This document shows positions 22,933 to 23,578 of a stretch of 64,000 nucleotides of DNA, in pieces. The position numbers and the translations under genes were made by a program. Below the pieces are notes generated by a model. It was not told the origin of the DNA and searched no databases. It was given only the letters and a program-made list of their open reading frames with translations. The DNA comes from Escherichia coli (GTDB lineage: Bacteria > Pseudomonadota > Gammaproteobacteria > Enterobacterales > Enterobacteriaceae), in assembly GCF_030384885.1 (NCBI RefSeq), contig NZ_CP128613.1; one strand, written 5' to 3'. How positions within the stretch are numbered: position 1 is the first letter of the stretch; each line of letters begins with the position of its first letter.

Positions 22933-23578
22933 GAGAAATCCTTTTCAATGAATGACATTTCAAATAATAAAATATGAGTAACAGATAAGAAATAGCCACA
23001 GGCTGTGTCATGATTTAATGTCTGCTCTTGAAATTTTATTTAGCAATCCCAGAACATTCAACTTAATTAGTATTTCGAAACCTCAATGCAGACACATAAA
23101 AAACAAATTATTCGATTACTTAGGCTATTTGTTGCATTAATACACATCCTCTAACAATAATCAGACAAAAAGCAATGTCAGCGTCAAATTGGGTAGCTGA
23201 TTCATATTACTGATCACTCCGTAAATTCATTCATCGTGAAAATATTAACATTTAAACCATGTTCCATTTAATCAACCCACTGAAAATCTGGAGGTTATCT
23301 ACTGCGGTTTGTTGTTGACTGCCCCTGATAGGATTACCAGGCGTTGACAGAAGATGAGGCTTGCAAGATGCTAAAAACAATGTGGTGTTACAAGCAATCC
23401 CATAAACCTCGTAACTTCACTTAAATGAGCGATGCCGTCCATATTTGGGTTGACTATAAAAATCCTTAATATTGAGGTTGATGATGATATTCATGATGGC
23501 GTTGGAAAAATAGGACACCCATAAAATATCTATACAGCCTTTAAATTAAATCATTGAAATATCGCTGTTGCATAGTGC

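Follow-up and report, generated by a model that had tools for sequence, protein, structure and literature searches.

The window, i.e., the whole stretch of 64,000 nucleotides that was analysed, carries an intact autotransporter gene at the ydbA position, and a non-coding spacer of 646 bp (22933–23578) lies between its start codon and the stop codon of ydbL. With 34.4% G+C, the spacer is AT-rich relative to its flanks (~48–55%), and its longest ORFs reach only 40–42 aa, none of them credible. An earlier reading made from the letters alone (hereafter, the sequence-only reading) had described 646 bp of AT-rich non-coding DNA at this place, and we found its coordinates to be exact. The features of the locus are as follows:

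16327..17187, minus strand: pdxI (ydbC), the core gene that follows ydbA; here, identity to K-12 is back at the background of ~95%
17395..22932, minus strand: intact ORF of 1845 aa at the ydbA position (ATG at 22930–22932), encoding a type Va autotransporter of the BigA/YdbA family; divergent clade I allele
22933..23578, no strand: AT-rich intergenic spacer, lineage-specific, not homologous to those of other ydbA haplotypes
22939..22943, minus strand: AAGGA, resembling a Shine-Dalgarno sequence, 6 nt ahead of the ydbA ATG
23033..23061, minus strand: possible sigma-70 promoter of ydbA, TTGAAT-17-TAAAAT, proposed solely from its 9/12 fit to the consensus
23154..23181, minus strand: another sigma-70 promoter candidate on the ydbA strand, CTGACA-16-TATTGT, likewise no more than a fit to the consensus
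23579..23905, minus strand: ydbL, DUF1318 protein of 108 aa (stop at 23579–23581), 95.5% identical to K-12, the homology ending at the stop codon
23910..26731, minus strand: ynbE and ydbH, core genes preceding ydbL and sharing its operon direction, as given by the ORFs and the annotation

In the RefSeq record of identical sequence (NZ_CP027579.1), CDSs for an "autotransporter domain-containing protein" and ydbL flank the spacer, with no annotation between them. The same arrangement, always with 646 bp, is found in 17 complete genomes and two metagenome contigs, and thus the joining of ydbL and ydbA is no assembly artefact. The RBS/ATG block is the sole part of the ydbA upstream region that is conserved in an alignment of six haplotypes. 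We infer that the spacer carries the ydbA promoter; promoter-like sites in the spacer region number 5 against 3.3 expected, which is not significant, and the same scan detected no terminator-like site in the spacer. The AT-rich spacer may also be bound by H-NS.

In K-12 MG1655 the order of genes is ydbL-feaR-feaB-tynA-paaZ-paaA..K-paaX-paaY-ynbG-ydbA. The sequence-only reading had put ~20 kb of fea, tynA and paa genes at this site in K-12, and rightly so, as 19,185 bp separate the ydbL stop from the ydbA start. Over the alignable part of the window (1–49482), identity to K-12 is only ~90–98% per kb (89.8% in part of hrpA, 5001–6000), which fits a clade I origin, and positions 49483–64000 have no counterpart in K-12 1396000–1500000. 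The K-12 Rac prophage (K-12 1411899–1434958) is absent; the window aligns on both of its sides with an overlap of 43 bp at ttcA (34779–34821), indicating an unoccupied attachment site.

The ydbA allele

The 1845-aa protein displays the BigA_N (PF25784, aa 161–241, 91.9 bits) and BigA_beta (PF25783, aa 1414–1497, 84.4 bits) domains and, in its last 400 aa, a C-terminal autotransporter beta-domain (PF03797, 67.4 bits with a cutoff of 26). BigA_3rd and BigA_4th are among the precomputed matches of the identical cluster representative. Its N-terminus, MQKKTLLSACIAIALSGQSWGAE, resembles that of K-12 YdbA and contains a putative Sec signal peptide. The protein shares with E. coli YdbA and Salmonella BigA the ydbL-ydbA-pdxI position and the layout of a putative signal peptide, BigA_N, a beta-helical passenger, BigA_beta and a C-terminal barrel. 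Yet, its score with the NCBIfam equivalog model auto_BigA (NF033178) is 992 bits, far under the cutoff of 3400; judged by this model, it is a relative and not BigA itself.

The protein is 59–61% identical to the common E. coli YdbA proteins. At the nucleotide level, the 3' 2.1 kb of the gene are 83% identical to K-12, whereas the passenger-coding part reaches 65–70%, in patches. Unlike the allele in the window, K-12 ydbA is not intact, being interrupted by IS2 and IS30. The nearest YdbA proteins outside the allele's own group, one from E. coli (P0005) and one from E. albertii (P0006), are 67–70% identical, and the spacers of their genes are unrelated to the one described here.

Among genomes with the same spacer (L008–L011), the central passenger (window 19000–22000) is only 74–95% identical, in contrast to the gene ends with 96–99%, and a 27-bp indel is located in the Pro/Asp-rich linker (window 22001–22600). 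Such a pattern is suggestive of mosaic recombination, or of diversification, inside this group of alleles. In the carrier 2020CK-00188, ydbA is split into two CDSs.

Distribution in Escherichia cryptic clade I

E. coli 2013C-4282 (NZ_CP027579.1), a published Shiga-toxin strain of cryptic clade I, matches the window at 100% identity. Okuno et al. (2023; PMC10100065) list both 2013C-4282 and EC42405, another carrier of the spacer, under Escherichia cryptic clade I. We detected the spacer in 17 of 5426 E. coli genomes, with the same result at sensitivities for near and for distant matches and at 98.3–100% identity, and these same 17 genomes carry the ydbA 5' region of the window. A 24-mer scan of metagenome contigs revealed the spacer in two contigs, in the same context. 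Clade I membership is taken from the paper for two of the 17 carriers and from a split in hrpA, located 15 kb from the spacer, for the other 15: 18 genomes have an hrpA at least 97.0% identical to that of the window, and all other matching genomes are at most 93.9% identical. The 18 genomes with clade I-type hrpA are the 17 carriers and strain N96. Since 17 of the 18 carry it, the spacer with its ydbA allele is the usual clade I version of the locus.

In five carriers that were compared, the spacer is 646 bp long, without indels and 98.3–98.5% identical, and the first 330 bp of ydbA are 98.5–99.1% identical; the flanking pdxI, ydbL and ydbH show 95–99.7% identity. The 17 sites that vary among these carriers are evenly spread along the spacer, and the substitutions in the small ORFs examined are all non-synonymous or abolish a stop, so that the spacer presents no sign of coding constraint.

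E. coli N96 (L041, NZ_CM169999.1, 31884–43903) is the only genome with clade I-type hrpA that lacks the spacer. Here, pdxI is followed by 230 bp and then by paaY...paaA (96–97% identical to K-12), with no ydbA. The flanks of N96 are 97–99.9% identical to the window up to pdxI and ~98% K-12-like further out (rimL-opgD). A paa cluster on a clade I-like flank implies that an island-bearing alternative exists on that background, and for this reason the clade I ancestor could have possessed the island and lost it without a trace.

The fea-tynA-paa island and other haplotypes of the locus

There is nothing but the spacer between ydbL and ydbA in the window, i.e., the fea-tynA-paa island is missing at the locus. 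Its absence elsewhere was examined with chimeric queries, in which a haplotype-specific stretch of 1246 bp was joined to short probes from the K-12 island. With 200-bp probes of feaR, feaB, tynA, paaZ, paaK and paaX (megablast), only the specific part matched in all 17 chromosomes that carry the spacer, and the outcome was the same in the 17 chromosomes with 400–500-bp probes of feaB, tynA, paaZ, paaA and paaK in blastn searches sensitive to ~65–70% identity. The plasmid annotation of 2013C-4282 contains no paa genes in the first 50 of 54.5 kb of unnamed1 and the first 100 of 118.8 kb of unnamed2; this scope stops before the last 4.5 kb of unnamed1 and before positions 100–118.8 kb of unnamed2, which follow traN and are assumed to hold the rest of the tra region. 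The sequence-only reading had named copies of paa, tynA or fea elsewhere in the genome as the finding that would overturn it, and none was found with the chromosomal probes or in these plasmid stretches. With no copy of the island at the locus or found elsewhere in this scope, it is a sound prediction that 2013C-4282 should not catabolise phenylacetate or 2-phenylethylamine via this route.

As for the plasmids themselves, unnamed1 is a 54.5-kb F-type plasmid. The IncF plasmid unnamed2 (NZ_CP027581.1, 118.8 kb) encodes ehxCABD, espP, saa, iha, a YadA-like adhesin and a lactate-utilisation cluster, a gene set typical for the virulence plasmids of LEE-negative Shiga-toxin strains.

The lack of the pathway is not rare, contrary to what the sequence-only reading implied. 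Of 5426 complete E. coli genomes, we determined that 3147 possess paaABC and 2279 (42%) do not, and the absence is already in the literature: E. coli O157 was reported to be devoid of paaA-E, G and K (Martin and McInerney, 2009; PMC2653477), and the paa locus was recognized as a region of heterogeneity, ydbA included, between core ydbH/ynbE/ydbL and ynbC/ynbD/azoR (Goldstone et al., 2016; PMC4951805). The presence/absence polymorphism, the variability of the locus and the strain are all already known. The case described here shares with the known feaRB-tynA-paaZABCDEFGHIJKXY polymorphism (PMC4951805, PMC2653477) its site and the pathway-less outcome. It differs in that the spacer and the ydbA 5' region cannot be aligned to island-bearing strains and in that no scar or breakpoint is found.

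The spacers of the K-12/B2 type, the O157:H7 type (412 bp, 375 genomes), a third type (L033; 401 bp, 115 genomes), an E. albertii strain (L034; 396 bp) and the window (646 bp) are mutually unalignable save for the RBS/ATG. Relative to the strains HM670 and Ecol_656, to O157:H7, to the L033 type and to E. albertii L034, the homology of the window is lost at the ydbL stop or earlier and is regained only from the RBS onward. The ydbL-ydbA-pdxI interval is, on these alignments, occupied by at least five unalignable haplotypes of passenger plus putative promoter in Escherichia. The O157:H7 type resembles the window in lacking paa, in having ydbL next to ydbA across an AT-rich spacer and in being lineage-marked. 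Yet, apart from the unalignable spacer, its ydbL is divergent (78.6%), its ydbA consists of two CDSs, and its block is more than 99% identical to that of Escherichia sp. E1V33. The 375 complete E. coli genomes with the O157-type spacer include O55:H7 and O157:H16.

Strain E1V33 is the representative of a non-coli species. When E1V33 (L015, 9500–11095) is compared with O157:H7 (L005, ~11460–13150), identity is 87–90% in ldhA/ydbH and rises to 99.2–99.6% from the ydbH 3' end through ynbE, ydbL and the 412-bp spacer to the ydbA 5' end. The jump in identity indicates a recent inter-species allelic replacement at the locus, and the near-identical block represents a useful example of such replacement at an adhesin locus.

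A ydbL-keyed scan of GTDB species representatives supplied outgroups. In the type strain of E. albertii, NBRC 107761 (L013, 5300–5472), ydbL is followed by ~170 bp and pdxI, with neither ydbA nor paa. E. whittamii (L014, 10322–10961) retains an O157-like spacer after ydbL and a ydbA 5' remnant of ~100 bp before pdxI, and it also has no paa. In E. albertii L034, an intact ydbA of 1917 aa follows ydbL after ~400 bp, again with no paa; E1V33 has the same ydbL-~400 bp-ydbA organization and no paa at the site. As ydbA is absent, present as a remnant or intact among E. albertii and E. whittamii, it has been repeatedly gained or lost. Escherichia sp. MOD1-EC7003 (L012, 5410–7390) constitutes a further variant: K-12-like sequence is replaced, 47 bp beyond the ydbL stop, by fragments of an IS630-like transposase and an ORF for a lipoprotein-like protein of 313 aa, and the contig ends before the next core gene. 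Because the outgroups have no paa at the site, the favoured, if not proven, view is that the island-free state is ancestral and that the island would be an 18.8-kb insertion in the K-12-type haplotype.

Origin and significance of the spacer

It is quite probable that the spacer forms the intergenic and 5' regulatory DNA native to the ydbA allele usually found in Escherichia cryptic clade I. It bears the ydbA ribosome-binding site and presumably the ydbA promoter, and the ydbH-ynbE-ydbL transcription unit ends in it. As a single haplotype, the variable block extends from the stop codon of ydbL into ydbA, as far as about the last third of the gene (~17.6k–23,578). It is bounded on one side by the conserved ydbL and on the other by the conserved autotransporter beta-barrel and pdxI, and the fea-tynA-paa island is not a part of it. 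The sequence-only reading placed the ydbA promoter in a different upstream context; what we observed is a different upstream sequence on a different ydbA allele.

We tentatively consider a broader interpretation, for which the odds are clearly against but not negligible, that ydbL-pdxI is a cassette locus. Modules made of a private, non-homologous upstream region and a YdbA passenger would be ancient alternative alleles. They would be exchanged between Escherichia species through recombination with ydbL and the beta-barrel as anchors, while diversifying selection acts on the surface antigen and its regulation. Exchange across species is seen for the O157/E1V33 module, and for the module of the window it is a possibility only. 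If this interpretation is true, the clade I spacer of 646 bp would be one of these private modules with a regulatory role, perhaps including a control element specific to the lineage.

It seems rather unlikely that the clade I haplotype, i.e., spacer plus passenger, was imported by homologous recombination from an unsampled Escherichia or enterobacterial lineage and replaced prior content, possibly the paa island. Such an import would be in line with the inter-species replacement observed between E1V33 and O157:H7, with the spacer and the ydbA 5' end being as conserved as or more conserved among carriers (98.3–99.1%) than pdxI and ydbL (95–97%), and with N96 as a paa-bearing alternative on a clade I-like flank. 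Yet, no donor of the haplotype emerged from the ydbL-keyed scan of GTDB representatives, in which a donor with another ydbL neighbourhood could be missed; the spacer is confined to the 17 genomes and two metagenome contigs, always in the same context, and the closest other YdbA proteins are those at 67–70% identity from E. coli and E. albertii.

The sequence-only reading had taken the interval for the junction of a deletion. In its simplest form, a deletion of ~19 kb from feaR to paaY in a K-12-like ancestor would have left the spacer as the fused remains of the K-12 intergenic regions. The ydbL-ydbA gene order is what such a deletion would yield, and deletions of this kind do occur in other lineages. 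In Ecol_656 (ST131-like), which served as a positive control, ydbL is followed by a feaR 3' remnant, a paaY 3' remnant and ydbA, with the junction at K-12 locus 4630|22722. In the second control, the "empty" site of HM670 (B2), the sequence passes from K-12 locus position 4271, which lies 64 bp past ydbL, straight to 23076, 14 bp past paaY. The flanks of both controls are 85–96% identical to K-12, and ~1035 genomes contain both K-12-type flanks within one short place.

In contrast, homology of the window to K-12, with blastn at word size 7, stays at 95.5% up to the ydbL stop (23581), ends there and reappears at 22943, 11 nt before the ydbA ATG, as 88 bp at 75% identity. At the same word size, neither K-12 intergenic flank (ydbL-feaR or paaY-ydbA) shows similarity to the spacer. 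When the spacer was searched with tblastx and blastn against the island of K-12 and every retrieved locus, the matches were at chance level only, with no remnant of fea or paa. The alignment to these two regions by which the sequence-only reading meant to locate a breakpoint and direct repeats therefore yields nothing, and no breakpoint can be placed. As the flanking core DNA is 95–96% identical, one would expect fused remains to be still discernible, as in HM670 and Ecol_656, and the adjoining 5' two-thirds of ydbA are only 65–70% identical to K-12. We regard the deletion as very improbable.

The clade I spacer is ~240 bp longer than the spacers of other haplotypes (646 vs 374–412 bp), and its central stretch (~23283–23430) has a G+C content of 40–46% and folds slightly better than shuffled sequences (z = -1.5). 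Scanning of the spacer against Rfam gave no match, the best hit being a plant miRNA model (MIR166, E = 0.31), and five 150-nt tiles folded on the ydbA strand had z values from +0.75 to -1.52, no better than shuffles. Searches for repeats and terminal inverted repeats in the spacer disclosed only weak inverted repeats (at most 71% over 21–28 nt); one pair of 21 nt at 71%, lying 499 nt apart, was judged to be a chance occurrence in AT-rich DNA. Signs of a mobile element (IS, MITE) are absent from the spacer, which is present in one copy per genome and has no ORF above 42 aa, and it had no match in the plasmid collection. The notion that the extra length and the properties of the central stretch reflect a functional element hidden in the spacer (a gene for a small protein, an sRNA, or the decayed remains of a gene or mobile element) is hardly credible in the face of the Rfam, folding, repeat, copy-number and plasmid results and of the even spread of variable sites with only non-synonymous or stop-removing changes in the candidate ORFs.

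The spacer is most likely an ordinary lineage-specific allele at a known variable locus, and this result replaces the view of the ydbL-ydbA junction as a deletion breakpoint. It offers a handy clade I-associated marker, present in 17 of 18 complete genomes of clade I type and in none of 5408 others. The absence of growth on phenylacetate and 2-phenylethylamine predicted for 2013C-4282 would extend to the 16 other carriers of the spacer.
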